A stretch of 32,000 bases of DNA from Crocosphaera subtropica ATCC 51142. Lineage in GTDB: Bacteria > Cyanobacteriota > Cyanobacteriia > Cyanobacteriales > Microcystaceae. Location: the NCBI RefSeq assembly GCF_000017845.1, contig NC_010539.1, forward strand, positions 7,621-39,620. Reading direction: 5' to 3'. The translations under genes were made by a program, and so were the position numbers. The notes under the pieces are model-generated. The model was not told the origin of the DNA, did not search any database, and saw nothing but the letters and a program-made list of their open reading frames with translations. This document shows, piece after piece, positions 7,089 to 27,067 of the stretch. Each line of letters opens with the position of its first letter. Within the stretch, counting starts at the first letter, position 1.

Positions 7089-8249
7089 TCACGAAAGATA
7101 GGGGCGAATTTTTTCAACCGCTACTGTCAGAATGTTAGCCGCTTTCTCAATGTCTTCATCAGTGGTAAATTTGCCAACTCCAATGCGTAAGGCTCCTTCA
7201 ATCATCTCATCAGATAACTTTAATGCACGCAATACATGGGAAGGAGTAGCGACTCCCGATGAACAGGCTGCACCCGTAGAAATGGCTAATTGATGGCGAA
7301 CTCTGGCGATAATAGCACTATTAGGAATCCCTGGTAGAGAAATATGAAGATTACCTGCAAGGCGAGCGTTTATGTTTCCGTTAACCTGTAAATCAGGGAT
7401 TTGCGCTTGTAATAAGGTTTGTAAGCGATCTCGTTGCCTAGCAATCTGCTGTTCATCTTGCTCCATTTCTAATTGACGCAGACGACAAGCTTCCCCTAAT
7501 CCCACAATACCAGGGACATTGAGGGTTCCTGAACGCAGTCCTTTTTGATGGCCACCCCCAAAGATAATGGGTTCGAGAGGATAGCCTTTTCTCACAACTA
7601 ATGCGCCAACGCCCTTGGGTCCATAAAGTTTATGGGCAGAAATAGCCAGGTAAGTAATGCCCCAGTCGTTGAAATTGATAGGAATTTTACCCACAGCTTG
7701 GGAGGCATCACAAAGGAAAGGAATATCGTATTGGTGGGCGATCTGACCAATTTTTTCAATGGGGTAAATATTGCCGATCTCATTGTTGGCTGCCATAACA
7801 CAGAGAAGGGATAGTCCATCAGCACAGGTATTTTCCAGATTTTCTAAATCTAATCGTCCAAAACCATCAACTTTGAGGTAAATGAGTTCAGCTTGTCCTT
7901 TTTTGGCGAGCATTTGAATGGTGTCTAAAACGGCTTTATGTTCCACGGGAGAAACGGCGATGCGGGGGAGTTTAGGGGAATTGATGGCTTGAATATGACC
8001 AATAATGGCGAGATTAATGCTTTCCGTTGCACCAGAGGTGAAGATAATGTCTTTGGGGGAAGCCTTAATCAGTTGGGCGATTGCTTGACGGGCGTTGTAA
8101 ACTGCTTTTTCAGCTTCATCGCCGTAGGTGTGGTCAATGCTGCTGGCGTTACCGAAGGCTGTAGTTAAGTAATAAACCATTAATTCAGCCACTCTGGGGT
8201 CAACGGGGGTGGTTGAATGGTAGTCAAGGTAAATGGGTTGAATTGTCAT
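7089..8249 (-). CDS. NifS/IscS-type cysteine desulfurase (SspA/DndA-like role inferred from context)
   Basis: PLP lysine motif ISAHKLYGPKGVGAL, catalytic cysteine loop ISTGAACSSGV, and a class V aminotransferase N-terminus. Its ATG overlaps the stop of the upstream 1841-aa gene (ATGA, 8246-8249). Confidence 0.9.
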   Translation of the reverse strand: MTIQPIYLDYHSTTPVDPRVAELMVYYLTTAFGNASSIDHTYGDEAEKAVYNARQAIAQLIKASPKDIIFTSGATESINLAIIGHIQAINSPKLPRIAVSPVEHKAVLDTIQMLAKKGQAELIYLKVDGFGRLDLENLENTCADGLSLLCVMAANNEIGNIYPIEKIGQIAHQYDIPFLCDASQAVGKIPINFNDWGITYLAISAHKLYGPKGVGALVVRKGYPLEPIIFGGGHQKGLRSGTLNVPGIVGLGEACRLRQLEMEQDEQQIARQRDRLQTLLQAQIPDLQVNGNINARLAGNLHISLPGIPNSAIIARVRHQLAISTGAACSSGVATPSHVLRALKLSDEMIEGALRIGVGKFTTDEDIEKAANILTVAVEKIRPYLS

Positions 8250-11200
8250 AGATTTTGACTTAAATCCTGTTTAATTGCTTCAGCAACTAAGGAAAATTCT
8301 TCATTCGATAAGAATGGCACTTGAGTATATATTAAATCTGATTCCCCTGGTAGTCTTGCGGCTAAATGTCCTTTGCCTAGAAGACATTCTCCTCCTTTTT
8401 GTCCCAAGGAAATTTCGGAAGTTCCTACACTCTCAACTCTTAAGATTAAGCGATTGCCTAAGTTATCTCGAAGCTGCATGGGAAAGACATTATTATCGGG
8501 ACGTTGTGCTGCAAAGATTAGATGAATTCCGGCTGCTCTTGCTTTAACTCCTAAGCGTTGTACAGCAGAAGATACAGCATTTTTATATTCTTCTACTAAC
8601 ATCCAATCAGCAAATTCATCATGAACTAAAAGAAGAACAGGCAATTGTTTTTCAGCAGAAACTTTTTGATTATAAACCAATAAATTATTGACTTTTTGTT
8701 CTCTAAATAGTTGATAACGAGAATCCATTTCGCTAACAATTTTTTCAAATACTTCAATGCCTTGATATTGTTCAGTAATGATTCCTTCTGTTAAATGGGG
8801 TAAGTCTTCTAAGGGGAAATAATCGGTTCCTTGTTTAGCATCAATTAAGTAAATTTTTACCAATTCTGGAGAATTAGTAGCGCAGACATCTAAGAGAAGA
8901 TTTCTTAATAAGACTGATTTACCGCTTCCCGTTGCTCCGGCAATTAAAGTATGAGGGGCGTGCTGTTGAAGATGAGCAAATTCTTCTCCTAAATTAAGAT
9001 ATAGTAATTCTCCATCAATTTCTTTGACTCCAATGATGAAACTAAGATTAACTCCTGCTTTTAGATTAATTTCTCGTTGCTTCCATACTTGAGAAAGGGA
9101 AATAATTTCTCGTTGGGGACGAGCGATAGAAACGATAATTTCCCCAGGCGCACCTAAGATATTGATGACATTTAACCCATGAGTTGTTAATAGACTTGAA
9201 CGACGAGTTTCAATATCTTTAATATTAAGACGATCTGAGCCTTTAAAACGAATTAAAGCAGCATTAGGGGTTAATCTTTGTCCTAATACTTTAGCTTGTA
9301 AATCATAGCTAATTAGAGCTTTTCGTAGTGTTGAAACGGTTGTTTCTAACCATTTTTTTTCTTGTTGCTCATTGATTTTAGATTCAGTTTGTTGATTAAT
9401 CCATGTCGCTAAAGCAGGACTAGCCCAAGTTGTTTGTGTTATATTATTAACTTCTTTCTTTTCCTCATTTTTGTTCTGATTTGTATAATTTAATTGATTT
9501 AAGTGGTTACTTTGACTATTATAATCAGAAACTCCATTACTATTTTGTTGGGAATTAAAGTCGTTAATAGGATGGTTATCATTAGCAGCCTTATTAGGAG
9601 TTTTTAACGAATTTATGCTGTGACTAGGATGAATATTTTGAGGAGAAGTAACAAGGGATTGCTTTTGGTTTGAATTAATTGTTGTTAGATTCTCGTTTTG
9701 CAATGTCCTGTTGACTATTGTTTCAGTAGATTCTGTACTTAAACTTTCTATATATGCTATTTTTTCTGATGAAGCTGAATCATCAAGAATTGGTAATTCT
9801 AAAATAGGATTTACCCAAACCACTCTATCAGCTGGAAATCTTGGTTCTGAAACTGTCCAAGGTTGTTCATTTCCTAATTTTTCTCGAATAGATGCTAAGG
9901 GTTGTTGGTGATGAATAGCTAATACTAATTGACGAACAGTTTCTCGATTAAATATTTCTTGATAACATCTATCTACTTTAGCAATTGGTATTTGATCGTT
10001 ACTAACAGAGGTATCGCTAGGTCCAGAGATAAACACATGAGAATACCCTGATAAATCAAGGGGAATCGTGCCGTCTCTAACACCTTTTCGCCATTCTTCA
10101 ATGGAAATTGAATCAGTTGAATTAAATTCAATTCCATCTAATAATAAATCTCCTAAACGAGATAACCATAAATCTCGGTCAAGTCGCCCTGGACTTACAA
10201 ATAAAGCATTAGCCATTCGTTCAACGGTATCTCTTAATTGATGTTGAGAACTTTTACGGGCATCATTTAATCCATTTGCTTCAATATATTTAGCTTCAGA
10301 AATAATTATTTTAAGAACAGGTTGCTCATTTTTTATTTGAGGACTGATAGCTAAAATATCAGCAATTCTTCCTTCTTTTTGTCCTAACCAACTAGCATAG
10401 TCATCTAAAAAATACCAACCAACAGGATGTTCTTCTCCTAATTCAGATAATAATAAAGCTTTACTTAATACCACTCCCATTAATTCACTGGCATATTTAC
10501 CACTTTTTGCGGCTCGTAATATAATATCCCCTGAAATGTCTTTAGCTTGCTCAATAAACTGTTCTGCTAACGTTTTGATAGTGGTTTCATCTAAGTCTAA
10601 ATTTAAGCTTTCTAAACGGCGTTTGACAAGGACTTGTAACAGGTTCAAAGGAGCATTAGAAGATACTAAAAAATTACGGTCATCGCTGCGACTTTGTTGA
10701 TAGCGAATGACATTAACACCTTGATTGATTAATTGTCGTCTTTCGAGTAAATCATCATAATTAACGACCCATTCTCCTAGACGATGAACTTCTTTAAATA
10801 CTGTGCTAGTGTCTTCATCTTGGAAGGAAATCTGTCTTGCAGGAAGAAAATGCTGATTTTTGGCACAATCTAAATCTACCCGTTTTAAACTACTATAAAT
10901 GGCATCTAGATAAGTTTGTCCTACAGATGGTTGACTCGGACAGACTAAATAAACCGTCGATTTTAATTCGTCTTTAGCAGCAGGACGTTTTCTTGAGTAG
11001 CGTGTGGGAACGTGCTTGAGAATATCGGGGTTATCGTTAGATAAAGGGGTCGGTTGCCAAACTATTTCTGCTTGTCTGGAAATAATATCTTGAAGAAAGA
11101 CAATATCAGCGATTTTTCCGTTAGATGAAGATGATGTGTTCGACATGACGCTGATTCGCAGTCTGGCCATAAAATCGTGAGTCCCTTCACTAGCGACAAA

Positions 11201-13771
11201 AGCATCTGCATCGGTTTGAGAACTTTCTATGAGTTGCTGATACAAATCACTTAATTTGGGGGAATCTCGATGACATAAAATGACTTGACAACGAGCTTCA
11301 TTATAGTTGTCTTGTAATTCACTTAGTTTTGTAATAACTGTTTGGGGAAGTCTAGTGGAGTCACATTGATAAAGAATGATACTCAAATTTGTTTGTTCAT
11401 GGGGGAGTAATTCGAGGTATCGCTTCATTAAGTCTAGCAGTTTATTGGCTGCCTTTTTGGGGTCTTCATTGGTAGACTGTTGAGTTATATCTTTTATTGG
11501 TTGTTCAAGGAGACTGTAATCATTGACTGTATCAGACAGATAAAGTAATAAAGGTTCATTCCCTTTATAACCTAAACAAACTTCGGGATAATAAGGGTGA
11601 GTGAGTTCATTTCTTAAATCAGAGAAGAATAAACGGGAATCTCCAAAATTAACGTCTTCTGTTGAAAGAATATGTTTCAGTAATCCTGAAATTTGGCGGG
11701 CTTTAATGCTCAAAGAGGCTAATCTTAAGGGATGCCAAGGCGTAATAATAGCAGCAGGTTTTCCTCGTTTGACTTCCACACACCCTAAGCGTAAAATAGG
11801 TTCAATTAATTCCACTCGATTAGTATCACCCAGGGCATGATTAAGGAGAGTTTTAAGAAGTTCTTGATAGTCATCGCATTGGTGGATTAAAACAGGATGG
11901 GAAATCCCTTCTTGACTTAACCAACTATTCAGGGCTTTTGTATAAGTTTCTTTAAATTTTCCCCAAGCTTGTTTAATTATTTCTGCGGATTCTGAAGATA
12001 AGCGATTATCTTGAACTGCCTGTTTAAGAGCCGTAGGAAACAGTTTAGCTAAGTCTTGTTTTCGGTCATATTTACTGACTAAAGAGCCTCTATCTTGTCG
12101 ATAAGCAGCCATTAAAGTACCGACATCATCCAGAGAAATTCCTTGAAGACGACCTTTTTTGCTGACTAATTCCCGTGATACTTCAGAGATAAGAAAAGGA
12201 GAGGGGTTGGAATTAACTAACCGGTTTAAGTCATCATGAAGTTCCATTCCAATACTATTGGGATTTACCTTCCAAATTAATTGAATTTTGCTGATTAATT
12301 CTTGAGAAAAACAAGAACGAAGTTCTACATAAAATTTGATTTCACAAGCGGCTTTAGCTACAGAAACATTTTTTTTATATTTTTTCTTATTTTTCGTTTG
12401 TTCATCTTTTAATAATTCATCATATTTAAACAGCCAGTGAGTCTCCCAAGTAATTTCAGGATAGGTTAACTGTTCAATCCCTCTATACCTTGTACAAAAA
12501 TATAATCCCATGTCTGCATTGAGTTCTAACCATTTACTTTTACGGGAACTTTTTTGAGTTTTAATAATTAATTGAGTCGGATTTTCTTGAGAATCAGCTT
12601 GGTCAAAGAGTCGCTCAAAGGCTTGAACTAAACCCACTAAAAAGTCAGTGCATTCGATGGGTTGACCGTAGACAAATTTATCCCATTTGGTTTTGAGAGT
12701 ACGGTCATTTTCTAATTCAGACCGATGGTTATCATAAAATTCTTTGTCTTCTTCGTTAGCTTCTTTGGCTTTTCTTTTCTTTAATGTTTCTAGATAGTCT
12801 AATTCAGATTCGGTTAAACTATCAGGGTATTCATCTTCATAAAATTGTTGGGTTAAACTATATAAGTCGGTTTTTTTTGTTTTTAATCCACTAAAAATAG
12901 CGTGAATATTATCTATTTCCCATTCAAATTTAGTTAAAGCTTTCCCTTGTTCATTCCATTCCGGCGGACTTTTAATGAAGGCTTGAATAATAGAATGGGC
13001 TTGCTCAGGAATGTCTTCTTTAACCTTTTCAAAGGTCGATTGTAACTCACTTTCTTCAATGGGTTTACGGGTAGGGGTTTGTTTGAGTAACAGACAAGCC
13101 CGTTTAGAAACCGCCTGTTGATACTTTTGTTGCCACTTTTGGGCGTGTCCCCAAGTTTTTTGGGGTATGGCTTCAAAATACCCCGAATCACGGGGTAAAC
13201 GTAAGGCAGGTAAAGCCCATCCCAAGGCATTAATGATAGGAACACTTTCTGAGGCGATGCGCTCACGAGTATCCATGACATAGTTCGCAAATTGCTCTAA
13301 ACTGCATTCGCTGGCTGCAAGTAGTCCTTTTAACGCTTTGTTCCAGTATTTTAATTGTTCATCAGGTAAATCTAAGCCCTCACTGGCCACGTCTACCCAA
13401 ATTTCAATTTGTTCTTTTAAGAGTCCTGCACCCAAGGCAGAAATATCTTTTAAAGATTGTCCTTGGTCATCGTTAGTATTAGCTAATAGCAGACAAGGGC
13501 GGTCACAGGGAGCATGGCGTAGGTGAACGGTCTTTTCATCGGTTAAAATAGCTTCAGGAAGGTCATATCCTGCCACTAGAGTGCGAGGAATTTGGATTTT
13601 AATGTGGGGAGATAAGTCAGGGGTAGCGAGAATAGACTGACAAATGTTCGTGACTTGTTCTCCTGTTAAACGGTCTAAGATAAACCGAGCAACTCCGTCT
13701 GAATCCTCTGTATTTAGGGATTCTCTGAGAAATTTTGTCGCTACTTGGCCAATTAAATCAATAGAATCCAT
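8246..13771 (-). CDS. 1841-aa DptH/DndH-like protein: large soluble N-terminal region, PD-(D/E)xK-like motif, N/Q/S-rich linker, C-terminal FtsK/SpoIIIE-type ATPase
   Basis: FtsK-type Walker A LIAGATGSGKSVLLRNLLLD (nt ~8915-8940). Walker B LLLVHDEFADWM (~8605-8623). AAGIHLIFAAQRPDNNVFPMQLRDNLGNRLILRV is also present. D1138...E1159-A-K1161 (IADILAIS...IIISEAKYI) is the nuclease-like motif. The DptH assignment rests on size, position after two smaller genes and the PT-gene context, not on a measured alignment. Confidence 0.55.
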   Translation of the reverse strand: MDSIDLIGQVATKFLRESLNTEDSDGVARFILDRLTGEQVTNICQSILATPDLSPHIKIQIPRTLVAGYDLPEAILTDEKTVHLRHAPCDRPCLLLANTNDDQGQSLKDISALGAGLLKEQIEIWVDVASEGLDLPDEQLKYWNKALKGLLAASECSLEQFANYVMDTRERIASESVPIINALGWALPALRLPRDSGYFEAIPQKTWGHAQKWQQKYQQAVSKRACLLLKQTPTRKPIEESELQSTFEKVKEDIPEQAHSIIQAFIKSPPEWNEQGKALTKFEWEIDNIHAIFSGLKTKKTDLYSLTQQFYEDEYPDSLTESELDYLETLKKRKAKEANEEDKEFYDNHRSELENDRTLKTKWDKFVYGQPIECTDFLVGLVQAFERLFDQADSQENPTQLIIKTQKSSRKSKWLELNADMGLYFCTRYRGIEQLTYPEITWETHWLFKYDELLKDEQTKNKKKYKKNVSVAKAACEIKFYVELRSCFSQELISKIQLIWKVNPNSIGMELHDDLNRLVNSNPSPFLISEVSRELVSKKGRLQGISLDDVGTLMAAYRQDRGSLVSKYDRKQDLAKLFPTALKQAVQDNRLSSESAEIIKQAWGKFKETYTKALNSWLSQEGISHPVLIHQCDDYQELLKTLLNHALGDTNRVELIEPILRLGCVEVKRGKPAAIITPWHPLRLASLSIKARQISGLLKHILSTEDVNFGDSRLFFSDLRNELTHPYYPEVCLGYKGNEPLLLYLSDTVNDYSLLEQPIKDITQQSTNEDPKKAANKLLDLMKRYLELLPHEQTNLSIILYQCDSTRLPQTVITKLSELQDNYNEARCQVILCHRDSPKLSDLYQQLIESSQTDADAFVASEGTHDFMARLRISVMSNTSSSSNGKIADIVFLQDIISRQAEIVWQPTPLSNDNPDILKHVPTRYSRKRPAAKDELKSTVYLVCPSQPSVGQTYLDAIYSSLKRVDLDCAKNQHFLPARQISFQDEDTSTVFKEVHRLGEWVVNYDDLLERRQLINQGVNVIRYQQSRSDDRNFLVSSNAPLNLLQVLVKRRLESLNLDLDETTIKTLAEQFIEQAKDISGDIILRAAKSGKYASELMGVVLSKALLLSELGEEHPVGWYFLDDYASWLGQKEGRIADILAISPQIKNEQPVLKIIISEAKYIEANGLNDARKSSQHQLRDTVERMANALFVSPGRLDRDLWLSRLGDLLLDGIEFNSTDSISIEEWRKGVRDGTIPLDLSGYSHVFISGPSDTSVSNDQIPIAKVDRCYQEIFNRETVRQLVLAIHHQQPLASIREKLGNEQPWTVSEPRFPADRVVWVNPILELPILDDSASSEKIAYIESLSTESTETIVNRTLQNENLTTINSNQKQSLVTSPQNIHPSHSINSLKTPNKAANDNHPINDFNSQQNSNGVSDYNSQSNHLNQLNYTNQNKNEEKKEVNNITQTTWASPALATWINQQTESKINEQQEKKWLETTVSTLRKALISYDLQAKVLGQRLTPNAALIRFKGSDRLNIKDIETRRSSLLTTHGLNVINILGAPGEIIVSIARPQREIISLSQVWKQREINLKAGVNLSFIIGVKEIDGELLYLNLGEEFAHLQQHAPHTLIAGATGSGKSVLLRNLLLDVCATNSPELVKIYLIDAKQGTDYFPLEDLPHLTEGIITEQYQGIEVFEKIVSEMDSRYQLFREQKVNNLLVYNQKVSAEKQLPVLLLVHDEFADWMLVEEYKNAVSSAVQRLGVKARAAGIHLIFAAQRPDNNVFPMQLRDNLGNRLILRVESVGTSEISLGQKGGECLLGKGHLAARLPGESDLIYTQVPFLSNEEFSLVAEAIKQDLSQNL

Positions 13772-15457
13772 TTAAGTTTTCTCCACAGTGTAAGGATTAA
13801 GGACATAAGCACAAGCATCGGAAAGGCGTTTGAGTAACCCCAAGGATGCGAGGCGTTGTTCGAGACGTTCTGCATTATCAGAAAAAGCTTCAAGGTCTGC
13901 TTCTTTGCGCTGAATGATGTCAATGGCTTGTTTTTCACCAATTATGAAGCCATATTTTTGATAGAGTGTGTCTAAAAATTCTTGAAATTCCATCCGTTTT
14001 GGGACACAACAAAGTACCAAGGTTTTTAATAGGGAGTCGGTGGGTGCATATCGGGTGCGACGACTTCCCCTGCTCGAAGCGAGTCCAATTTCTTTTGTCC
14101 ACTTACTATGAAATTGACCAACGTGCTGTTTATGTCTAGTAATTGCTGAGAGACGAATTTCTTCTAATAGTTCATCGGGAGAATTACATTTGATTTCATC
14201 CTTTTTATAGTAAATTTCTTCTTTGATAATTTCTAAGGCATCTTCTATGGAGTTGGCAGAGTTAAGACAGGTTTGCCATTCTGGAAGTTGAGACAGTCTT
14301 TTTATATAGTGTTCAACCGCTCGTTTACTCAGGTTATTATTGTTTAAAAAGGCATCGGAAGCTAGGTCACGAATAATCGTTTTTTTGGGAGCAATTATTT
14401 CTAAAATTAATTGAGGTTTATCTTGACTATTCAAGGTGGTTGTTGAGTTCAATGAATCTTCATTGGTATTAGCTATAGTTTCTGACTTAAATAATAGATT
14501 TTGTTGACTATTTAAGAGACTTTCTGAGGAGAATCTAGGGTCATCTTCATTATTTAAGACGGCCTTAGCTCGTTTGAGTAGGTAAATGACTAAATGGACT
14601 CCTGTAATAGTAACTAAATGGGGTAAAGAATCATAGTCAGGAAGATGGCAATTAAATAGATTTATCCAATCATTAGCTAAGTTTTCAAATTCATCAAGAT
14701 GTTCATAGGGAAGATAGGGAGGACTGCTATCTTTTCCTCTTGGTTTTGTATCAGAATGATCATTAGGTTGAAGGGTAGCAACTAATTTATTCCATTTACT
14801 CGATTGTTTATGATCTATTATTCCTAATTTTTTTAGATGGGTTAAAATGTCTAATTTTAAAGAACTACGACTAATCATGAGATAAAGTAATTCTCCATTT
14901 CTGGCAAAAAAACGACGGTCATTGCTATAACTATTCTTACTAATTCTTAAATCCTCATAAAGACAATTAACCCCATAGGGAAAGACAAATTTAGAAGTCC
15001 AACGTTTATTACTATCACCTTCAATGGCATTAGATTGAAGAAATCTTACCACTTCTAGAAAGTCCCGAAACCTTATAAAGCGTTCTTGTAAATAACTAAA
15101 GTTAGGGGTGTTAATACCTCCACAATTATCATTCATTAAAGTTAACCATTGTTGCCAACGTTCTTCTTCTGTTGGATATTCTGCATAAACTGCTTCTAGA
15201 AAAGGATTATTAAACAGGATATTTCGTAAATAAAGACGACTATAAGAGGGATATTCTAATTGATGATTTTCAGGTTCAATAAAAGCTTGCTCTCTTTCTA
15301 ATTGTGTTTGAACAATGCCTAAAAATTCTAGAAGGGTTAACCAAGGGGTTTGTTCATCATAAAGACGATGACCCCAAATAGCTTCATCAACCCACATTTC
15401 AGTTTCTCTATGGGTTTTATTATGAGATGTAGGTTTAGGAAGACGTTTTATTATCAT
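13772..15457 (-). CDS. hypothetical protein, DptG-like by position
   Basis: 561-aa ORF. Its start overlaps the upstream stop (ATGA, 15454-15457), and its TAA abuts the downstream ATG (TAAATG, 13769-13774). I see no enzymatic motif. It has a conserved-looking N-terminus (EAIWGHRLYDEQTPWLTLLEFL) and an S/N-rich internal insert. Confidence 0.4.
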   Translation of the reverse strand: MIIKRLPKPTSHNKTHRETEMWVDEAIWGHRLYDEQTPWLTLLEFLGIVQTQLEREQAFIEPENHQLEYPSYSRLYLRNILFNNPFLEAVYAEYPTEEERWQQWLTLMNDNCGGINTPNFSYLQERFIRFRDFLEVVRFLQSNAIEGDSNKRWTSKFVFPYGVNCLYEDLRISKNSYSNDRRFFARNGELLYLMISRSSLKLDILTHLKKLGIIDHKQSSKWNKLVATLQPNDHSDTKPRGKDSSPPYLPYEHLDEFENLANDWINLFNCHLPDYDSLPHLVTITGVHLVIYLLKRAKAVLNNEDDPRFSSESLLNSQQNLLFKSETIANTNEDSLNSTTTLNSQDKPQLILEIIAPKKTIIRDLASDAFLNNNNLSKRAVEHYIKRLSQLPEWQTCLNSANSIEDALEIIKEEIYYKKDEIKCNSPDELLEEIRLSAITRHKQHVGQFHSKWTKEIGLASSRGSRRTRYAPTDSLLKTLVLCCVPKRMEFQEFLDTLYQKYGFIIGEKQAIDIIQRKEADLEAFSDNAERLEQRLASLGLLKRLSDACAYVLNPYTVEKT

Positions 15458-17361
15458 AATTGAATCTCCAAGGTTCTTTCATTAGCTATTCCATCGGCAT
15501 TAAGTTCTAGTAAACGAATAATCATCTCTGAAGCTTCAGTTTCGTCGGCTTCTTCTTCTTTTTGTCTTCTAATATTAAGTTGTCCTAACAGTCGAGTTTT
15601 AAAAGCTAACATATCCTCATAACATTCTTGAGAAAAGTTACTGGGTAATGCTCCTTCTGCAACTCTGTTTAGGTATTCATAGCGAGTTAAATTTAATCGG
15701 AGTTTTATAGGGTCAACTTCAGGGTGGGAAGATAGAGAAATAATAAAATCGGGAGTATTATGGTCAGTATTTAATTCAACTGTGACACTTTCACCTCGTT
15801 TTTTAATAACAGAAATATATTCTTCAAAGACTCGACTAATCTTGGCTTGAGAATAACTACCAGATGTTGCTAAAACTAATTGATCTTGATTATTTATCAA
15901 TAATCCGGTAAAGATACGATTGATTCCTTTAACTATTTTAAAAATGAGATATTTAGGAATGGTTTGATTTTGTTTTAATGGTCTACAGACTTGTTCTAAA
16001 TAGTCTCCTGCATACTGAAAAGCTGTTAATTCCCATAGTTTTAACTCTGCTACTCTATGCTGAGGAATAGTAAAGAATAATCGCTGTCTTTGTGTGTGAA
16101 GTATATTTAAGAATTCTTCTTTACTGTCTTGAGAATCATTGCTTTCTAAATAGCTTTTTTGAGCAATACGAAATTGTTGATGTGCGCCATAAAAAGTATC
16201 TGTTAAGACTAAGTTTTCATAATCTTGTTTTAAGTCCGGGTCATCTTCTCCAAAAATAAGAATATTATCAATATAGTTACTGCTTTCTGTACCAATTCCA
16301 AAATATCTTAAAGCAACAAAGACATCAGTTTTATTTCGTTTTCTGCTAGAAAGATTTTCTCCAAATAGATTACTATAAGGACTAGCTAAATAACCTGTTT
16401 TTTGAGTTGTAATTTTAGGAATTTGGTTACAGTTAAGTAATTTATCTTTGACATCAGGATGTCCTAAGATAATATTAGAAATAAGGAGAAGTAATTGACG
16501 AATAGGAAGATGGGTTCCTTTATGACGAGATAATTCGAGAAGGTCAATAATTCGCTGTCTCATTAACTGTTGGTCATTTTTTCCATCGAGTCTGGTTTTG
16601 TTTTCCCAAATGGGACAGCGTTGCTGACTATCTGTAGGAGTTTGATAGGGACATTGACTACATTCTTCCCAACCAGGATGATTTAAAACTGCATCAAGAA
16701 TGCGAGAAAAGATTTCTTCGTTATTTAAGCGACTTAGGTTATAAAGAAGTAGGTTAAACTCAGGATTTTCTCTTTTTTCTTCTACCAATAAGGTTTCAAT
16801 TAATTGACGTGCTTTTTCTATTTGAGGAGTGTTTTCTGCAACGTTCCATGCTTCGATGAGTTGTCCATCATTAGCAGCAATTAAGTAAACTTTATCGGTA
16901 TGATAGGGGTTGATGATCCCTTCTGCTATTTGAGGTAATAGTTGGGTTTTTTCTTCGTCTTGAATGGCACTGAGGTCTTTTATAATAATTAGAGTTTTTT
17001 GTAAGAGTGGTAGTTTATATATTTCTTGATTGGTTTCCCACTCTTCTTTTGACCCTCCTAATTTTTCCCAAATTTCTCGACAGCAGAATGTTTTTCCATC
17101 TCCTGCTGTTCCGGTGAGAATCACCGATTTAGGGAAGTCAGATTGAAAGTTATCGATTAATTCTTGTAGGTAAGGAGTTTCAAAACAGATGGGTTGAATT
17201 TTGTTTTTCTTTAATGCTCGTTGAATTGCCTCATCATACATATTATCATTACGAGGAATTGGCCCATATTGACGGAGAAAGGTAATCCATTTTGATTTTT
17301 TGAAAGTAGAATTATAATTCATAATTAGAGTAATTAAACTTAAATATATATAACCAATCAC
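15454..17361 (-). CDS. P-loop NTPase with a cysteine cluster, DptF-like by position and motif
   Basis: Walker A VILTGTAGDGKTFCCRE, a Walker B-like LIIIKDLS, and the Cys cluster ECSQCPYQTPTDSQQRCPIW. The likely true start is ATG 17322 (MNYNSTFKKSKW), because the first 13 codons of the track ORF read like AT-rich leader. Confidence 0.45.
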   Translation of the reverse strand: MIGYIYLSLITLIMNYNSTFKKSKWITFLRQYGPIPRNDNMYDEAIQRALKKNKIQPICFETPYLQELIDNFQSDFPKSVILTGTAGDGKTFCCREIWEKLGGSKEEWETNQEIYKLPLLQKTLIIIKDLSAIQDEEKTQLLPQIAEGIINPYHTDKVYLIAANDGQLIEAWNVAENTPQIEKARQLIETLLVEEKRENPEFNLLLYNLSRLNNEEIFSRILDAVLNHPGWEECSQCPYQTPTDSQQRCPIWENKTRLDGKNDQQLMRQRIIDLLELSRHKGTHLPIRQLLLLISNIILGHPDVKDKLLNCNQIPKITTQKTGYLASPYSNLFGENLSSRKRNKTDVFVALRYFGIGTESSNYIDNILIFGEDDPDLKQDYENLVLTDTFYGAHQQFRIAQKSYLESNDSQDSKEEFLNILHTQRQRLFFTIPQHRVAELKLWELTAFQYAGDYLEQVCRPLKQNQTIPKYLIFKIVKGINRIFTGLLINNQDQLVLATSGSYSQAKISRVFEEYISVIKKRGESVTVELNTDHNTPDFIISLSSHPEVDPIKLRLNLTRYEYLNRVAEGALPSNFSQECYEDMLAFKTRLLGQLNIRRQKEEEADETEASEMIIRLLELNADGIANERTLEIQL

Positions 17362-17383: not shown

Positions 17384-19108
17384 TTAAGATGTATCTTTCC
17401 TTTGTGACCAAATTAGTAAAGCTAGTTCTTCTAATTCAGCTATTTTTAATGAATCAGTTACACAAAATAAATCAATATTTCCACCAACTTCTTGCTGAAG
17501 TTTAGATTTTAGAGTCTTTAAGACTGATTTTCCATAACGATATCTCTCACAATCTTGGTCATACATTTGATAACAGTTTGAAGCTATTTGTCCATTATTG
17601 ATTCTTCCGTTACCTTTTTGACGAGATTGTTGTAATTCTATGTCTGTCCGACTATTTATAAACTTTTCTTTCGATTTTTCAGATTTTTCAGCAGTGGAAT
17701 TACTGATAAGCTCTTGTATCCTATCTGTTGTTAATTGTGGATATAAAGATTGGATATGTCCAAGATTAATAAAATGAGATTCTGCATCTGTTCCAGTTGT
17801 TAAAAAGCACAATATATTTGCTCGTTCAATTTTTTCTCTAAAATCGTTTGCTTCATCATCCGTTAAATAATCTCTATCTCTATGTAATAATATTTTAGTT
17901 TGAGAACTATGTTTTCGGATAAAAGCAGCTAAAACTAATGCTGTTTCAACTTTAGTACATCCTTTATATGACCAAATATCAACTTCATCCATTCTAAACC
18001 CTGATGCTTCTAGCAATGTTTCAATAGGTTTAGTGTCTTCATCTTCAGTTAATAAAACACATTTAATATTTTCAGTATTTAATAATAATTCATCTTTATC
18101 TAAAGCTCCAATATCTAGTAAAAGTTGAACAGTATCAAAATCTTTTTCATTTATAATTGTTCCATTCTTTAACCAATATATTTTTGTCTTTTCTCGTAAC
18201 GCATCAAGGAGATGTCTTGAATGAGTAGTTACTATAATTTGTAAATCGCGTTCTTCAGTCAATTTGATTAGCATTTTAGCTAATTTTCGTTGGTTATTTG
18301 GATGTAAATGCGAATCGGGTTCATCTAAAAGTAATATTTGAGGTTTATAAATATTAATATAAGATATAATTTGTATCGCTTGTAAAACCCCTGTACCAGC
18401 TAAATCTATTGGTAAACTATTTTCATCATTGGCTTGAATTTGACAATTAATATAATCATCACGTTCTGGATTAAACTCAACAATAACTTTTAAGTCAGGA
18501 AATAAATAATTAAAGTCTGATATAAATTGTTTCCATTGTTCTGATTCATTGTGAAGAAGGTAAAGAACATTTCGGAATACTTTATTGGCATCTCCTCTAG
18601 CAGCTGCCTTTCTAACAATCCCTGGAGTTTTACATTCTTCTACGTCAGGAATACCAGCTAGTCCAGGGACATAAATACTATATGGTGTTTCTATGATTTG
18701 TAGTCTTTCTCCTAATTCTTTTCCTTCTACTGTAATCGATAAATTTCTATTTCTCCCTTTTCTCACTGTAACAAGAACATTTTGTTTTTCTTGATTTTCT
18801 TCAAAAGAAATGATAATTGCTTGATCTTTATTTTCAACCAGTTTACCTCCATAGGCCAACGCATAAACATCTCTAAGAGGCGCATAGATTAGCTGCTGAG
18901 GGGATAATGAAGTTGATAATTTTTCATCCTTCCAATTTACATTACTCTGAAGACTAGCTGTTTGACCAACAGATACAGCAAATTGTATAGCTTGTAGAAT
19001 GCTACTTTTTCCAGAATTATTTGAACCTACCAAAATATTAACTCTATCAAGGTCTAAAGTTAAATTTTCTAAATTCTTGAATCTTTGTATAGTTATTTTG
19101 CCAAGCAT
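17384..19108 (-). CDS. fused ABC-type (AAA_15/21-like) ATPase + Toprim/DUF4435-like domain protein (OLD-family / PARIS AriA-AriB-fusion-like)
   Basis: N-terminal half: ITIQRFKNLENLTLDL...ILVGSNNSGKSSILQAI (Walker A), ILLLDEPDSHLHPNNQ (Walker B/D-loop), IVTTHSRHLLD (H-loop). C-terminal half: CVLLTEDEDTKPIE (Toprim Glu region), YKGCTKVE, ILLHRDRDYL (DxD), TTGTDAESHF. Confidence 0.65.
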   Translation of the reverse strand: MLGKITIQRFKNLENLTLDLDRVNILVGSNNSGKSSILQAIQFAVSVGQTASLQSNVNWKDEKLSTSLSPQQLIYAPLRDVYALAYGGKLVENKDQAIIISFEENQEKQNVLVTVRKGRNRNLSITVEGKELGERLQIIETPYSIYVPGLAGIPDVEECKTPGIVRKAAARGDANKVFRNVLYLLHNESEQWKQFISDFNYLFPDLKVIVEFNPERDDYINCQIQANDENSLPIDLAGTGVLQAIQIISYINIYKPQILLLDEPDSHLHPNNQRKLAKMLIKLTEERDLQIIVTTHSRHLLDALREKTKIYWLKNGTIINEKDFDTVQLLLDIGALDKDELLLNTENIKCVLLTEDEDTKPIETLLEASGFRMDEVDIWSYKGCTKVETALVLAAFIRKHSSQTKILLHRDRDYLTDDEANDFREKIERANILCFLTTGTDAESHFINLGHIQSLYPQLTTDRIQELISNSTAEKSEKSKEKFINSRTDIELQQSRQKGNGRINNGQIASNCYQMYDQDCERYRYGKSVLKTLKSKLQQEVGGNIDLFCVTDSLKIAELEELALLIWSQRKDTS

Positions 19109-19138: not shown

Positions 19139-19939
19139 TTACAAATGACACACTAAACAAGGCAAATCATCATCCTCCTCATCTAAAACCACCTCTAACG
19201 CTTCGGATAAAGGTCGATTAGGGGCTGCTTTTTTCTCACGGGCGATCGCCTTCTCATGATTAGCGATAATCTCCTCTTTGCGTTCCAAAAGTTCTAGTAA
19301 CGTTTCTCCTTCCGTCCAGGTGTAAGTTCTGCCATCCCTGTGATTAGATTCATATTCCACCGCCTTCGCAAACAAATCAGGATGTTCTTGGGCTAACATC
19401 ACCCATTCATATTTGCGTTGGAAGAAACAAAAGAAACAGCCCGAACGACTTCGCCAGCGATAATAATCTGGCAAACCAATCCCACTATCCTCTAATAAAC
19501 GGATAATATCGGCTTTTACTAATCCTCGTTCCTTAAACGGAAAAACAGGCTTAATATTGGGCTTAGTAGAGATGTAACCCTCTCGATTTTCATCCGCACG
19601 AATGCCAATATAGCTAATAGCCTCATCCTCACCCACAAACTCCTCTAACGGCTTAATCTTCATTTTTACCGTACACCAGCGCATTTTTGGAGAAGGTAAT
19701 AGACCATCGTGCATCGTTAACCAGTGGTCAAACCCTCGGTTTTCACTGAGATAATGGATTGTGATACCTAGACGGGCTTTAATGCGGTCAAGATACTCAT
19801 AGGTTTCAGGGAGTTCTTTGTGAGTGTCACAGAAGAAATACTCCATATCTGGGATTTCCTTGTGCAGTAGTACCGCCAAAGCTGTGCTATCCTTGCCTCC
19901 TGAGAGTCCCAGTATGTGCCTTATTTTCTTTTGTGCCAT
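19139..19939 (-). CDS. sspD: PP-loop / PAPS-reductase-family protein, SspD-like
   Basis: PP-loop ILGLSGGKDSTALAVLL plus cysteine pairs SGCFFCFF and LPCLVCHL. It lies in the same-strand cluster as the DUF4007, large P-loop and cysteine desulfurase genes. It is short (266 aa) compared with DndC. Confidence 0.6.
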   Translation of the reverse strand: MAQKKIRHILGLSGGKDSTALAVLLHKEIPDMEYFFCDTHKELPETYEYLDRIKARLGITIHYLSENRGFDHWLTMHDGLLPSPKMRWCTVKMKIKPLEEFVGEDEAISYIGIRADENREGYISTKPNIKPVFPFKERGLVKADIIRLLEDSGIGLPDYYRWRSRSGCFFCFFQRKYEWVMLAQEHPDLFAKAVEYESNHRDGRTYTWTEGETLLELLERKEEIIANHEKAIAREKKAAPNRPLSEALEVVLDEEDDDLPCLVCHL

Positions 19940-20052: not shown

Positions 20053-20637
20053 TCAAGAGGGGATAGAAAGAACATTACAAATTTCTCGTCCTTGGATAGT
20101 TGTTGTTTTGAGGGGAGAAAACCCATTTTCTTCCCACTGATATGGAGTAATGTCAATTACGTTAGAACCAACTAGGAAATTTCCACAATTTATTTTTCCT
20201 GTATTAGCTCGATTAGATGTATAGAGAACAAAGCCACTTCCATAAGGTCTTATTTCAATAAAGTTCATCGTTGAAAAAATGGGTTTAATTTTTCTTGATT
20301 GACTTTCAAAAATGTAGGCATGGGTTGAAATCCCACTTCCACCTCCACTTGACAGTAAAACTACTAAAGCATCTTCTTTGGAATCATCATTAAAGTCTCT
20401 GTACTGAACTTTATCTAATGAAACATAACCCCAATCATCATCTTGATACTGACCTTGTTTGAGGGTTATATTTCCAGAAGGTCCCATTCCTCCTTCTCTT
20501 ATTTGGTAAGTAAAATTATTAAAATCTATTTGCCTAATTATTTCTTCGGCATAGCTAGGTGGTACAAGTAAAAATCCTAGGGAAAAAGAGGTTATTAATC
20601 CAGTTAACAATTGATTGTTTTTCATAACTTTGCCCAT
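20053..20637 (-). CDS. exported hypothetical protein
   Basis: Signal-peptide-like N-terminus (LLTGLITSFSLGFLLVPPSYA|EE). The start may be Met5 (MKNNQ...). No family recognised. Confidence 0.55.
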   Translation of the reverse strand: MGKVMKNNQLLTGLITSFSLGFLLVPPSYAEEIIRQIDFNNFTYQIREGGMGPSGNITLKQGQYQDDDWGYVSLDKVQYRDFNDDSKEDALVVLLSSGGGSGISTHAYIFESQSRKIKPIFSTMNFIEIRPYGSGFVLYTSNRANTGKINCGNFLVGSNVIDITPYQWEENGFSPLKTTTIQGREICNVLSIPS

Positions 20638-20699
20638 TAATAATTAAGTTTGACTTTGCAACGAAATGCTATTAAGACTAAAAGTAAAAAGCTTAGCCC

Positions 20700-21269: not shown

Positions 21270-21321
21270 AATAGCCTTACATTGATGATTTTAAAAATAG
21301 GAACACTAAAAAATTAGAAGG

Positions 21322-23314: not shown

Positions 23315-26300
23315 TTAACGGGCCACCTTTTTAGACTTACCCTTTTGAGATGAGGCTTTCTCTTGAAGCAAACTTACTCCTTCAAGAGAATTAGTATTTA
23401 ACACCCTTTCTGTTAATTTCGCTAACACAGCTTGACGAATTTGCTCATTATCTGGCAGAATATCTAAAATTTGCTGAACGTATTTCTCTACTTTGTCTTC
23501 ATTACTATTATCTACCCAAACCATCCGATGGGTTTCCTCCCCATCAGGACGAGTAACCGTAATACGTCGTGCTTCAAACCCGTCCCCCTTAGCGGCCACT
23601 TCTTTCTGCAACGCCTCTAAATTCTTAAACCGTCTAGCAATATCCGATAACTTAACCTCAAACCCCGTGACATCCTTATCTGTCCAAGACTCAGGGGGTT
23701 TATCGGAGATCACCATCACCACTGCTTCTAACCATTCTGAATCAGATTTATCCTCATCAGTGGCAACTTGGACAAAACTGCGTAAATTCCGTTCTACACA
23801 CTGCCCTGCTAAATAACTCGCCCTTACTCGCAAATCTTCCCGCAGTTGCTTCTCCTGACTGCGTACCCCAAATGCTTCATAGAGTAACTTTTGACAGTCG
23901 GTTAACAGGGTTTCATAGGCCGTATTAATTTCCCGTAACGCCTGAACTAAGCGAGTCCGCAGGGTTTTAGCAATGGTTCCATCCTCTGCTTCTTCGGTTC
24001 CAATGGGGTCTAACCCACAAGCAACAGGAAGACTGGTAAAGATCAGTTCATCGGGTTCAACGGTTGTCTGTAATGCTTTGAGTACCCCTAATGCTTCTTT
24101 ACCGAGTCGTTGGGTTTGTTTCGTATATGAGGGAAGTTTTTTGACAAATTGATAGAGAGGAGTCACTACAGTTAGTAAGGTAGCATTTCGTAGTTTACCT
24201 GCTTTTTTCAGCTTAGGATTGCGTAAAATGGACTCTAATTCTTTAAATACCTCTGACCGTAACCCCACCACTTCAAAATATTTCACCGCAAAGCGAGACG
24301 GATCTTTAACCAATAATTCAAAGTGTTCTGCCCCTAAAATGGCAATAAAAGTCCCGTCTTGATATAACCCCACATCATCAATATGATTGAGAATGACGGC
24401 CGCAATTAAGACAGGAATCGCCCCCTGTTTGATGCCATAGGGCGGTTCTGCTAATTTTTGGTAGAGTTGATCTAAAGTGTGAGGCGTATCATAAGCATTC
24501 AAACAAAAATCTTCTACAGCTTCCCAAAACGAAAAAATTCCCGATGTAGTTTCAGGGGGATAAAAATCCCAGTCTTCTTCAATGATTTCAGATATATCAG
24601 GAGTATTAATTAGTTTCTCCTCAACGGTTACAGATATTTCAGAGGAGTCAACCCGTTCTTCATTCCCTGTGTCTGTCACTAATTTTTCTTCAGTTATCGC
24701 AACCGTTTGACCATGAATTCTCGTTTCTTCTAATAGAGAATAATACATACTGACTTCAGGGCCGTAACCAGATAACCCTAACCTGGGTTTTGATGACTGT
24801 TCTATCATGGCAGTTATTAATTCCCGTCTCGCTTTTGTACCTTGGGAAGTTAAGTCTCGACGGTTAATTAATTCATTCCAAAGAATCGGCGTTTTGTGAT
24901 AGACTTCATCGCAGACATGGGATAAGGTTGCATTGAAGTCGGCAATAGAATTAAGTTTCTTTTCCTCCCCTTGCACCCAACAACGGTTATGATTAAGGGC
25001 AAGGTCAAACGCTTGGGTTAATATTTCATCAAGCAATCTTTCTGCTTCAGTCACCCGATAACGCACTTCTCTTCTAGCGACTCCATCGCTTTGTAATTCA
25101 GATGCAGAGGTTTGAATTTGTTTTAAGGCAGCATATTCTCTGGTACGAATTCGTAGTAAATCTAATTTTGCCGCACAAATTAAAATGAAGGGTTTACCAT
25201 CCACTGTGGTAGCAGGAATTTGTGGCGGAATTTCCTCATCTAACCAATAGCCAATTAAGCCATCACTATCGGCATTTTCTAACTGTAATTGTTCTTGTAA
25301 AACTTTAAATTTATCATCTTCCCCTTTCGTTTCTAATCCCTTGCTATTGGAATCAAAATACAGTTTGCTGTCCAAATAACGTCGCTCAAAGTATCGTAAA
25401 GTACCTGTTTTATAACTATGACGCTGGGCAATTTGAGGATTGAAAGGACGCAGAGAAGAAAGTAAATTAACTAAAGATTCTCGTTGTTGGTCAATAAAAA
25501 CATTTAACTCACTATCTACATTAAAATCTGACCCTTGCCAAATTCTTAATTCATCTAATTGACGACGATGAGTAATAATATTTTTTTGTAGCAAGTCATC
25601 AATAATACTGCCCCAATACTCTAATTGTTCACTATCATGAGGACTATCACACATGGCTAAGGTGACTAATTCACGGGTTGCGCGGTTTGCCCCTGTTGTG
25701 GTAATTAAGTTTAAAATTCCAATTGCTTTTAAGACTCGTAAACTATCATTTTCTAAACGTTTCGCATCAGCAATTAAGTCTTGAATTTCCACCCATCGCT
25801 GCAAATTAGGACGGGACGCTAACCCCATTCCCGCAGCTTCAATAAAATAGTCATACACACGGTCAAGTTTTAGGGTGGGAAAAGGGTTAATATAATCTGT
25901 TTGAGATTTTTGTGTAGTTGGCTTTTCTGAGTTCTCTATTGTATTATTTTTTATGCTTGTTTCTTCCAGAAAAATCCTAAAGGAATAGGGTTCATTACTG
26001 GTAAGAAAGGTAAATAAAGATCGGTCATTTTGGGCGTAACGTTGACAAAGAGTAGGTAATGCTAAAGCAGTTACTGGATGAAGAGGATAAATATTTTCTA
26101 AAATGTCTAGGGTTATTTCTTCCCCTTGAATAGCAGTTTTTAAGCGACTAAACCATTCCGAAGCTGTATTATGGATAGCACATTCTAAGGGTTCTGCTTG
26201 AGTTTGATCAATCGCTTGTCCCATTAAGCGCATCATAGAAGATGCTGACTCAGTAAAGGGAATGTCTTCAAAGCGTCCTTGAATTTTAGCCCATTCGTTG

Positions 26301-27067
26301 CGTTGAACGGCGGCTAAACGTTGACTATATTCGGCAAAAGCTTGGTGTAAAATTCCTAATAAATAGACAGGGGTTGCAGTATTTTTGGGAAGTTCGGCCA
26401 GTTGTTGTAATAAGTATAAATCCTCTGCCCCTTGGTTATAAGCTGCATATTCAAGGGCTTTGCCCAATTCGTCAATGATTAAGAAAATCCCTGTTTTTGA
26501 GGCTGTGGCTAGTTCTTGGACGAGTTCAACAATTTTTCTACTATCTATTGCTTCTTCTGATGCGAGTTCAGTTTCTAAATCAGTCAATTTAGCAATAGCA
26601 GGAATTTTATTCTGTTGTGCAGGTTTCCAGTAAGTTTCTACACCTCGGCTTAAGGCACGAATAATAGTATGACTGATGGGTTCTCGTTGTCCTGTAGCGA
26701 CGGCACGAATATAGCCTTTTTCGGGAATAACTTGGCTTATAGTTTGATAGTCTAGGCTTTCCTTCCCCAAGGTATTTCTAGCAATTTCTAGGGCTTTTTT
26801 TCGTAGCTTACTTTTATTATCTGCTAATAAAGCGGTTAAATAATGAGCAAAAGCCGATTTTCCGGTTCCATAGACGCTGGTTAATGTCCAAGCTCGATTG
26901 CCTTCTGGTGCGGCAATTCCGCTTGAAATACGTCGTAGGGTTGTAATAGAACGATCCGTTAGGACGTAACCTTCTAAAGCTTCAAATTGCTCACTGTCCC
27001 GTTCTAAATTGACGGAACGGGAGTAACGACGCTTGAGAGTAATGTACTGGGAGAGGGGTTGGATCAT
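23315..27067 (-). CDS. sspC: 1250-aa P-loop ATPase, SspC-like
   Basis: Walker A TLTSVYGTGKSAFAHYL (nt ~26849-26875), Walker B GIFLIIDELGKAL (~26461-26490), and an N-terminal RSVNLERD...GYVLT motif. Size and architecture resemble the large DUF499/BrxC-type ATPases. It lies between the DUF4007 and PAPS-reductase-like genes. Confidence 0.55.
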   Translation of the reverse strand: MIQPLSQYITLKRRYSRSVNLERDSEQFEALEGYVLTDRSITTLRRISSGIAAPEGNRAWTLTSVYGTGKSAFAHYLTALLADNKSKLRKKALEIARNTLGKESLDYQTISQVIPEKGYIRAVATGQREPISHTIIRALSRGVETYWKPAQQNKIPAIAKLTDLETELASEEAIDSRKIVELVQELATASKTGIFLIIDELGKALEYAAYNQGAEDLYLLQQLAELPKNTATPVYLLGILHQAFAEYSQRLAAVQRNEWAKIQGRFEDIPFTESASSMMRLMGQAIDQTQAEPLECAIHNTASEWFSRLKTAIQGEEITLDILENIYPLHPVTALALPTLCQRYAQNDRSLFTFLTSNEPYSFRIFLEETSIKNNTIENSEKPTTQKSQTDYINPFPTLKLDRVYDYFIEAAGMGLASRPNLQRWVEIQDLIADAKRLENDSLRVLKAIGILNLITTTGANRATRELVTLAMCDSPHDSEQLEYWGSIIDDLLQKNIITHRRQLDELRIWQGSDFNVDSELNVFIDQQRESLVNLLSSLRPFNPQIAQRHSYKTGTLRYFERRYLDSKLYFDSNSKGLETKGEDDKFKVLQEQLQLENADSDGLIGYWLDEEIPPQIPATTVDGKPFILICAAKLDLLRIRTREYAALKQIQTSASELQSDGVARREVRYRVTEAERLLDEILTQAFDLALNHNRCWVQGEEKKLNSIADFNATLSHVCDEVYHKTPILWNELINRRDLTSQGTKARRELITAMIEQSSKPRLGLSGYGPEVSMYYSLLEETRIHGQTVAITEEKLVTDTGNEERVDSSEISVTVEEKLINTPDISEIIEEDWDFYPPETTSGIFSFWEAVEDFCLNAYDTPHTLDQLYQKLAEPPYGIKQGAIPVLIAAVILNHIDDVGLYQDGTFIAILGAEHFELLVKDPSRFAVKYFEVVGLRSEVFKELESILRNPKLKKAGKLRNATLLTVVTPLYQFVKKLPSYTKQTQRLGKEALGVLKALQTTVEPDELIFTSLPVACGLDPIGTEEAEDGTIAKTLRTRLVQALREINTAYETLLTDCQKLLYEAFGVRSQEKQLREDLRVRASYLAGQCVERNLRSFVQVATDEDKSDSEWLEAVVMVISDKPPESWTDKDVTGFEVKLSDIARRFKNLEALQKEVAAKGDGFEARRITVTRPDGEETHRMVWVDNSNEDKVEKYVQQILDILPDNEQIRQAVLAKLTERVLNTNSLEGVSLLQEKASSQKGKSKKVAR

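Follow-up and report, generated by a model that had tools for sequence, protein, structure and literature searches.

An OLD-like ATPase gene with a putative divergent Toprim-like domain nested in a cyanobacterial ssp operon

Introduction

OLD proteins, which combine an ABC ATPase with a Toprim nuclease domain, are classified by genetic context as solitary (class 1), Gabija (class 2), retron (class 3) and PARIS (class 4) proteins (PMC10568477). Here we analyse a gene for an OLD-like protein, hereafter X, that lies in the phosphorothioate (PT) ssp operon of Crocosphaera subtropica ATCC 51142, within a stretch of 32,000 nucleotides (nt) of contig NC_010539.1 that is called the window below. An earlier note on this DNA had read X as a PARIS/OLD-like ATPase-Toprim fusion embedded in a restriction operon and possibly guarding it. 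We found that X is a dispensable accessory gene and not a core Ssp component, and that it belongs to a lineage specialised for ssp loci. To the reading that its product is a self-contained OLD-like nuclease, which would form a separately triggered accessory layer of these loci, we assign a probability of roughly 0.55.

Several described systems resemble this arrangement. Class 1 OLD includes P2 Old and the proteins of Thermus scotoductus (6P74) and V. cholerae, and in the class 2 protein GajA of Gabija, which has a UvrD-like partner, GajB, the ATPase and Toprim domains also share one chain. In PARIS, the pair is split between AriA, an ABC ATPase, and AriB, a DUF4435 Toprim nuclease whose substrate is tRNA, and it is occasionally fused as AriAB; PARIS is the paradigm for the sensing of anti-restriction proteins. 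In PrrC/EcoprrI, a type Ic restriction-modification (R-M) system keeps an anticodon nuclease silent until Stp, an anti-restriction peptide of T4, activates it. ATPase and Toprim pairs are also nested in modification-based operons, as OLD-ABC/TOPRIM modules in BREX (PMC12839542) and as RloA/RloB in type I R-M loci of Campylobacter (PMC10802264, PMC12065111). A computational hypothesis, covering BREX and BREX-related systems in at least 1242 taxa, regards the OLD-ABC/TOPRIM modules as back-up effectors against anti-restriction (PMC12839542), and the same idea is mentioned briefly for RloAB of type I R-M loci (PMC10802264).

The surroundings of PT modification genes are poorly charted, and most sspBCD modules are partnerless: 84% of them are without a known restriction partner according to the SspFGH paper (PMC8092258). 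One partner that is known, SspE, is a recruited relative of solitary GmrSD enzymes (PMC12065111). In the literature searched, we found no report of an OLD-like gene in Ssp loci; the back-up idea itself is already published for BREX and type I R-M.

Results

Gene X lies within a complete ssp operon

X is a real gene and not a chance open reading frame (ORF), since it matches the Pfam family AAA_15 (8e-29) and has more than 2600 homologues, over 100 of them full length at 47–66% identity. A public record with 100% identity to X is annotated as 'putative ATPase (plasmid)' of Crocosphaera subtropica ATCC 51142. The ORF and all seven motifs quoted in the earlier note are present, on the minus strand; the plus-strand reading of the same interval is full of stop codons. 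The ssp set of the window is complete, with sspB, sspC, sspD, X, sspF, sspG, sspH and sspA following one another in this order on the minus strand (Table 1).

The spacers that the earlier note had given, 30 nt between sspD and X and 22 nt between X and the sspF ORF, agree with the ORF calls, and PADLOC identified the two neighbours as SspD and SspF. The alignment to the SspF profile begins at residue 26 of the GTG-started sspF ORF, and the true sspF start, and hence the spacer to X, may differ from the ORF call. Between positions 17000 and 20300, no terminator-like sites were found around X, and promoter-like matches were no commoner than in shuffled sequence. Because no terminator-like site flanks X and the genes share one strand with short spacers, X most likely shares a transcript with sspD and sspFGH. 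X was also considered as a candidate for SspC and rejected, the genuine SspC being the 1250-amino-acid (aa) product of the gene listed in Table 1. No Ssp model was among the best 25 of 152 PADLOC matches of X, and the seven neighbours all match their own models strongly.

Two subclades of the X family reside in ssp loci

Among the first 89 homologue loci, ssp genes were found near the closest relative of X only, and further close relatives were then looked up. A neighbour-joining tree placed the window X together with P0002, P0004–P0006, P0010, P0020 and P0029 in a first subclade (bootstrap 99.5%) and P0003, P0008, P0009, P0011 and P0015 in a second (bootstrap 82.5%). Usable contigs were available for nine members of the two subclades, and all nine lie in an ssp locus; four homologues known from other settings (P0007, P0012, P0028 and P0067) fall outside both subclades. 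The embedding of the gene in a PT restriction operon, which the earlier note had described for the window and which the shared strand and short spacers bear out, is therefore recurrent.

The arrangement around X varies from locus to locus. The window has sspD-X-sspFGH-sspA; L097 has sspC-sspD-sspF-G-H-X-sspA, and L098, in which the contig begins at X, has X-sspA. In L094, the order is sspC-sspD-sspE-X-helicase-HATPase_c_3-PLD-like-sspA, and in L096 it is sspB-C-D-X-helicase-HATPase_c_3-DUF2779-x-sspA. L003 and L095 carry (sspB-sspC-fic)-sspD-X, then a convergent DUF4007-small-BrxC-PglZ-BrxL module and then sspA, and L099 and L100 carry sspD-X-DUF4007-small-BrxC-like-PglZ-BrxL(-sspA). X and its ssp neighbours are encoded on one strand, with spacers of 22–42 nt to sspD, sspF or sspA, and the hosts of the ssp-linked loci range in GC content from 34% to 55%. 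Pairwise identities of X and of SspD are moderately correlated (Pearson 0.63).

A second effector module was present at all eight ssp loci that could be read on both sides of X, and four kinds of module stand beside it, namely SspFGH, SspE, helicase plus HATPase, and PglZ/BrxL. Since every locus read across X has such a module, an auxiliary role of X fits. X precedes sspFGH in the window and follows it in L097. Because its position flips in this way, its partner module varies and related ssp loci are without it, X is not tied to SspFGH specifically; it is probably neither an SspFGH subunit nor needed for PT modification.

Other observations weigh against a firm bond between X and Ssp. The 13-member ssp-linked clade that joins the two subclades has a bootstrap of just 53%. 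In a metagenome scan that yielded 80 sspD loci with SspD 52–87% identical to that of the window, 56 had at least 1.5 kb downstream, and X or an X-like ABC ATPase was detected by tblastn and hidden Markov model (HMM) search at one of these 56, on the contig that is L099. Moreover, L102 has the arrangement of L094 without X. As X is missing from 55 of the 56 sspD loci, near-identical arrangements included, any functional tie between X and Ssp is dispensable. The slot after sspD is elsewhere occupied by SspE, by SspFGH, by two Uma2 nucleases with DUF4007, by helicase plus HATPase, by a PLD-helicase with an ABC ATPase, or by a STAND NTPase. A metagenome scan with the single X protein gave no match, its search patterns being too specific.

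A single alignment position, T294 in place of S, discriminates the ssp-linked sequences from the others, and for this reason the biochemistry of X is probably that of the solitary genes. This bears on the idea that X is a PT-dependent restriction partner of SspABCD, an alternative to SspE or SspFGH for which PT marks would separate self from non-self and which would attack unmodified DNA by nicking or degradation. In the loci examined, both subclades are linked to ssp without exception, whatever the other effector, X adjoins sspD or sspA at all nine loci, and the divergence of X and SspD is partly correlated; partnerless sspBCD modules are many, and SspE offers a precedent for the recruitment of a solitary enzyme. 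We nevertheless consider such a partner quite improbable, as X is never the sole candidate effector at loci read across the gene, has no added domain that would set it apart from its solitary relatives, and contains no recognised PT-binding module. In addition, near-identical ssp loci function without X (L102, L110), and its GC content at third codon positions (GC3) differs widely from the values for the modification genes at every locus. With another effector present at every ssp locus read on both sides of X and solitary relatives essentially alike in sequence, a self-contained, separately triggered nuclease layer that is co-expressed with the PT system is the simplest reading of X.

The N-terminal half is an OLD-type ABC ATPase

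The N-terminal half of X is firmly assigned as an OLD/AAA_15-type ABC ATPase, in agreement with the earlier note, which had called it an ABC ATPase of OLD/AriA type. In Pfam, AAA_15 is followed by AAA_21 (2.5e-23), and SMC_N and DUF2813 also match. The top sequence match in the PDB is 6p74, the class 1 OLD nuclease of Thermus scotoductus (7e-8), and 6p74 is again the top Foldseek match of the full-length AlphaFold model of X (E 2.4e-13 over 539 columns), which has a predicted local distance difference test score (pLDDT) of 90.5. An hhalign comparison with P2 Old aligned residues 197–319 with a probability of 96%, covering the ATPase part alone. The motif LLLDEPDSHLHPNNQ quoted in the earlier note corresponds to residues 259–273. 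Across 54 homologues, K34 in Walker A, D262 and E263 in Walker B and H296 in the H-loop are invariant, and the ATPase is expected from these residues to be active.

The PADLOC models NsnB, AriA, AbiLi, mad3, Old (2.9e-21), GajA and PtuA all match the ATPase. AriA reaches 2.3e-31 and the model of the AriAB fusion 1.6e-16; the best stretch of the latter pairs X residues 199–416 with profile positions 273–500 of 694 and ends just past the DRD motif. Since the NsnB, AbiLi, mad3, Old and GajA models score alike, the PADLOC match of the ATPase is a generic 'OLD-ABC' one.

A probable, highly divergent Toprim domain in the C-terminal half

The earlier note had described the C-terminal half as Toprim/DUF4435-like. 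The DUF4435 part of this claim found no support from HMM searches, and the Toprim part is partly supported: we judge it quite likely that this half is Toprim-like and very divergent, on the basis of its topology, its invariant residues, the identity of its weak fold matches and a bridging alignment. In a separate model of residues 318–574 (pLDDT 90.3, predicted template modelling score 0.85), four beta-alpha units precede a helical domain. In the 54 homologues, E355/D356 after beta1, D411xD413 after beta3, D441xE443 after beta4 and K527 in the helical domain are invariant. The acidic residues share the order, and roughly the spacing, of E26/D30, D88/E90 and E122 of AriB (PMC11464382), and the residues of X also follow the order of E400, D455xD457, T506xE508 and K562 of the OLD protein of B. 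pseudomallei (PMC6755086), in which K562 is the catalytic lysine; K527 may be its equivalent. Taken together, the invariant acidic residues and the lysine argue for a putative conserved active site. The motif YKGCTKVE occupies residues 381–388.

The weak fold matches are of the same kind. Among 350,542 PDB chains, ranks 2 and 4 were the C-terminal region of an OLD protein, 6nk8 (E 0.045), and AriB, 8ux9_A (0.061), and in BFVD a RloB-like protein came first (E 0.054, probability 0.91), followed by Toprim domains of DnaG. RloB has been described as a member of the Toprim group (PMC12065111). The bridge is an OLD-like protein of a Picosynechococcus plasmid, to which BLASTP aligned X at E 7e-22, unbroken from the ATPase into the C-terminal domain, pairing VLLTEDED of X with IIFVEGQDD and LLHRDRDYLTDD of X with LIFDRDFLSDD; hhalign also paired TDAES of X with YTFES. 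The same segment of the Picosynechococcus protein has sub-threshold Pfam matches to DUF3226 (1.3e-5), Toprim (0.007) and OLD-like_TOPRIM (0.03). A profile-profile comparison of the X family with the family of this OLD-like protein paired the right motifs with a weak score (E 0.0035, probability 9%), and a homologue search with the Picosynechococcus C-terminal region found 21 proteins, none with a precomputed Toprim domain.

Against the Toprim assignment stands the fact that it has no significant profile or fold match. Searched alone, the C-terminal half gave no Pfam match and no PADLOC match even at E=10, and the AriB and AriAB models of PADLOC were among those that failed to match. The Pfam families DUF4435, Toprim and OLD-like_TOPRIM were undetected in 20 family members, X included. 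A PDB profile search with the C-terminal domain retrieved no OLD, GajA or AriB chain, and hhalign of its profile with P2 Old left the Toprim part unaligned. Foldseek with the model of residues 318–574 returned nothing below E=1e-3 in PDB or BFVD.

Such negatives would be expected if X were no nuclease, and instead an ABC ATPase whose C-terminal domain is Rossmann-like and degenerate, serving as a regulator or as a helper of PT modification. We regard this as extremely unlikely, because 54 sequences with 47–67% identity to X share, without exception, six acidic residues and a lysine at exactly the Toprim positions, and the wider family occurs without ssp genes.

In L092, on a plasmid of Picosynechococcus sp. 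PCC 7117 (NZ_CP016481.1, 26802–28784), a distant 660-aa OLD-like ATPase-Toprim protein is encoded between helicase-related and DUF1156 genes, another such gene between two large neighbours in one cluster.

The X family is mobile, AT-rich and mostly solitary

The full-length architecture is kept in more than 100 clusters of ~565 aa with 47–66% identity to X. A profile of the C-terminal domain found 633 clusters among 1.84 billion representative proteins; these are mostly ~555–620 aa long, and the fused form is therefore the rule. Gene context was read at 80 loci of GTDB genomes and in five further look-ups; the majority of the homologues are solitary, and most family members have no restriction system within 10 kb. 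Their settings include a defence island (Cohnella, L001), an integrative conjugative element (Flavihumibacter, L002), a prophage-like region (L005), a site beside smpB (L008) and plasmids. Across 89 loci there is no universal neighbour gene, no neighbour common to more than seven loci and no conserved helicase partner. No homologues were found in 50,697 phage records; a plasmid collection held 12 distant ones, none of those examined being in an ssp locus.

In 68 of 71 loci, the family gene has a lower GC content than the flanking ±10 kb, the mean difference being 11.5 GC points. X has the lowest GC3 in the operon of the window (0.14, with sspD at 0.42) and the lowest of all genes in seven other ssp loci; in L098, its GC3 is 0.29 against 0.62 for sspA. 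AT-richness is typical of mobile abortive-infection-type genes, and the X family as a whole is mobile, AT-rich and mostly solitary.

The foreign composition of X at every locus is what would be seen if it were a pure hitch-hiker, that is, an independent single-gene defence or selfish element, functionally unconnected with Ssp, in an insertion-tolerant slot after sspD that moves along with the island. This slot is highly variable, X is rare among sspD loci, and foreign genes interrupt the operon elsewhere too (five ORFs for putative secreted proteins between sspC and sspD in the window, and Fic in L003). We hold this explanation to be highly doubtful, as all nine placeable members of the two subclades are in ssp loci, in hosts of 34–55% GC and with 50–60% mutual identity, and sister lineages are found elsewhere.

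The family also enters other restriction operons. Four type I R-M operons hold a family gene: in L014, L015 and L033 the order is hsdS-X-hsdM, and in L012 a helicase with ResIII/DEAD domains, X and hsdM follow one another. X overlaps or abuts hsdS in L014 and L015, and in L015 it overlaps hsdM as well. This recurrent nesting in restriction-type operons, together with that in ssp loci, favours a PARIS-like guard, in which the ATPase would respond to a phage factor that counters restriction (an Ocr-like DNA mimic, or an inhibitor of PT or BREX-like systems) and the nuclease would abort the infection, as a back-up to the Ssp restriction module. So do the PARIS-type domain pair with its AriA match and an AriAB match that runs to residue 416, the other effector module always beside X, and the equivalent logic published for BREX (PMC12839542) and for the RloAB pair of type I R-M loci (PMC10802264). 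No HMM, however, assigns the C-terminal domain to DUF4435, no evidence was obtained for a trigger, and most family members are solitary; X is missing from most sspD loci, and the ssp-linked sequences have no sequence feature specific to them. Such a guard is possible but unlikely.

Proposed role of X and its likeness to known systems

If X is a separately triggered nuclease layer, as we prefer, its N-terminal ABC ATPase would oligomerise and act as sensor or regulator, as in known relatives, and would gate a two-metal Toprim nuclease, which on a trigger would cleave DNA or tRNA, by analogy with OLD, GajA and PARIS (PMC10568477, PMC11464382, PMC6755086). The substrate could be DNA, which OLD and GajA cut, or tRNA, the substrate of AriB. 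The two subclades have settled in the variable 'effector slot' of ssp loci, and in the window X probably adds a back-up or abortive-type nuclease layer alongside SspFGH. The analysis establishes the ATPase architecture, the conservation of catalytic-type residues and the gene contexts; the Toprim nuclease activity, the ATP gating, the co-transcription and the back-up role are inferred.

By sequence and fold, X is nearest to class 1 OLD, with 6p74 as the best PDB match in both respects, and most members of its family share with this class their existence as solitary genes. The Pfam models OLD-like_TOPRIM and Toprim do not match X, however, its first motif is TED and not (V/I)EG, and X and its subclades sit in ssp operons. 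With PARIS, X would share the two-domain logic, and AriB is among the top four fold matches, weak as they are, of its C-terminal domain; in contrast to PARIS, this domain is not DUF4435 by HMM and X is fused, not split. The BREX OLD-ABC/TOPRIM and RloAB modules are likewise ATPase and Toprim pairs nested in a modification-based operon, and some ssp loci with X (L003, L095, L099 and L100) carry a type-4-BREX-like DUF4007-BrxC-PglZ-BrxL module, but the X family is a distinct sequence family whose C-terminal domain is unmodelled in Pfam or PADLOC. As in Gabija, ATPase and Toprim-like domains form one chain, and GajA models match the ATPase of X; X differs in having no UvrD-like GajB partner, its neighbours being SspD and SspF, and the helicase gene that follows X at L094 and L096 is of the PbeA-like superfamily 2 (SF2) type and is also present without X in L102. 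PrrC/EcoprrI provides the analogy behind the guard idea, being an ABC-ATPase-regulated nuclease in a restriction operon that serves as a second line when restriction is attacked; its nuclease domain is other than that of X.

A bolder proposal makes X a dedicated guard of PT immunity, whose ATPase would monitor the SspBCD complex or PT marks and whose nuclease would be freed on inhibition by a phage or on a build-up of unmodified DNA. We find this decidedly unlikely; if true, it would define a new OLD class by its coupling to a DNA-backbone modification system. An ssp-resident lineage would in any case add a further context to the context-based OLD classification. X marks an unmodelled branch of OLD-like ATPase-Toprim proteins, with a C-terminal domain invisible to Pfam, PADLOC and NCBIfam, and its loci are a cloneable test case for the question of whether nested OLD/PARIS-like modules are back-up effectors or independent passengers.

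Features of the operon and other genes

The coordinates of X, its motifs and the ssp genes are collected in Table 1.

Table 1. Gene X, its predicted domains and motifs, and the ssp genes of the window (positions count from the first nucleotide of the window)
Feature	Position	Strand	Details
Gene X	17384..19108	minus	574 aa, ATG start, stop codon included; OLD-like ABC ATPase plus putative divergent Toprim-like domain
N-terminal ABC ATPase domain	18149..19108	minus	residues 1-320
Walker A GSNNSGKSS	19001-19027	minus	residues 28-36
Signature-like LAGTGVLQ	18380-18403	minus	
Walker B/D-loop LLLDEPDSHLHP	18290-18334	minus	
H-loop TTHSRH	18212-18229	minus	residues 294-299
Predicted Toprim-like core	17765..18073	minus	residues 346-448; four beta-alpha units
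TED motif (E355/D356)	18032-18058	minus	VLLTEDEDT, residues 351-359
HRDRD motif (D411/D413)	17864-17887	minus	LHRDRDYL, residues 408-415
TGTDAES motif (D441/E443)	17774-17797	minus	TGTDAESH, residues 438-445
C-terminal helical domain	17387..17764	minus	residues 449-574; helices in models
YGKSV motif, invariant K527	17522-17536	minus	
sspB (DUF4007)	29800..30708	minus	Pfam DUF4007 4.5e-106; PADLOC SspB 1.3e-123
sspC	23315..27067	minus	PADLOC SspC E=0; 1250 aa
sspD (PAPS-reductase-like)	19139..19939	minus	PADLOC SspD 6e-115; Pfam PAPS_reduct
sspF	15454..17361	minus	PADLOC SspF 5e-233
sspG	13772..15457	minus	PADLOC SspG 3e-187
sspH	8246..13771	minus	PADLOC SspH E=0
sspA (cysteine desulfurase)	7089..8249	minus	PADLOC SspA 4e-141; Pfam Aminotran_5

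The ssp genes of the window are interspersed with further ORFs. Between sspC and sspD (20053–23211, minus strand), five consecutive ORFs of 194, 189, 206, 175 and 235 aa have signal-peptide-like N-termini, an unusual cargo for a PT-modification operon. Searches of Pfam, PADLOC and NCBIfam gave no significant family match for any of the five, and a weak similarity (34% over 58 aa) links two of them. The same place holds the Fic gene in L003 and SWIM-domain and Uma2 genes in L099. Between sspB and sspC, the plus strand carries two paralogous ORFs (27630–28214 and 28276–28845; 39% identity), also with signal-peptide-like N-termini and without a family match. Beside sspB lies what, judging by sequence alone, is a putative toxin-antitoxin pair of DUF5615/DUF433 type (28925–29257 and 29351–29635, minus strand), for which PADLOC gave no match.

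In related loci, the second module of L003, L095, L099 and L100, composed of DUF4007, a small ORF, BrxC-like, PglZ and BrxL, stands beside sspBCD and shares sspA with it, and the whole looks like an Ssp/BREX hybrid. L094, L096, L102 and several of L142–L169 have the pair of a PbeA-like SF2 helicase and an MzaB-like HATPase_c_3 protein after sspD, followed by a PLD-like gene in L094 and by a DUF2779 (Cas4-like) gene in L096; this pair is a candidate for a further Ssp-linked effector module.

Mobile-element and defence-like genes occupy positions 1364–6094 of the window. They encode a protein with a PRiA4_ORF3 domain, a tyrosine integrase (2712–3584), a T5orf172/GIY-YIG-like protein (3721–4440) and a RecD-like helicase that resembles PDC-M16A of PADLOC (4604–6094).

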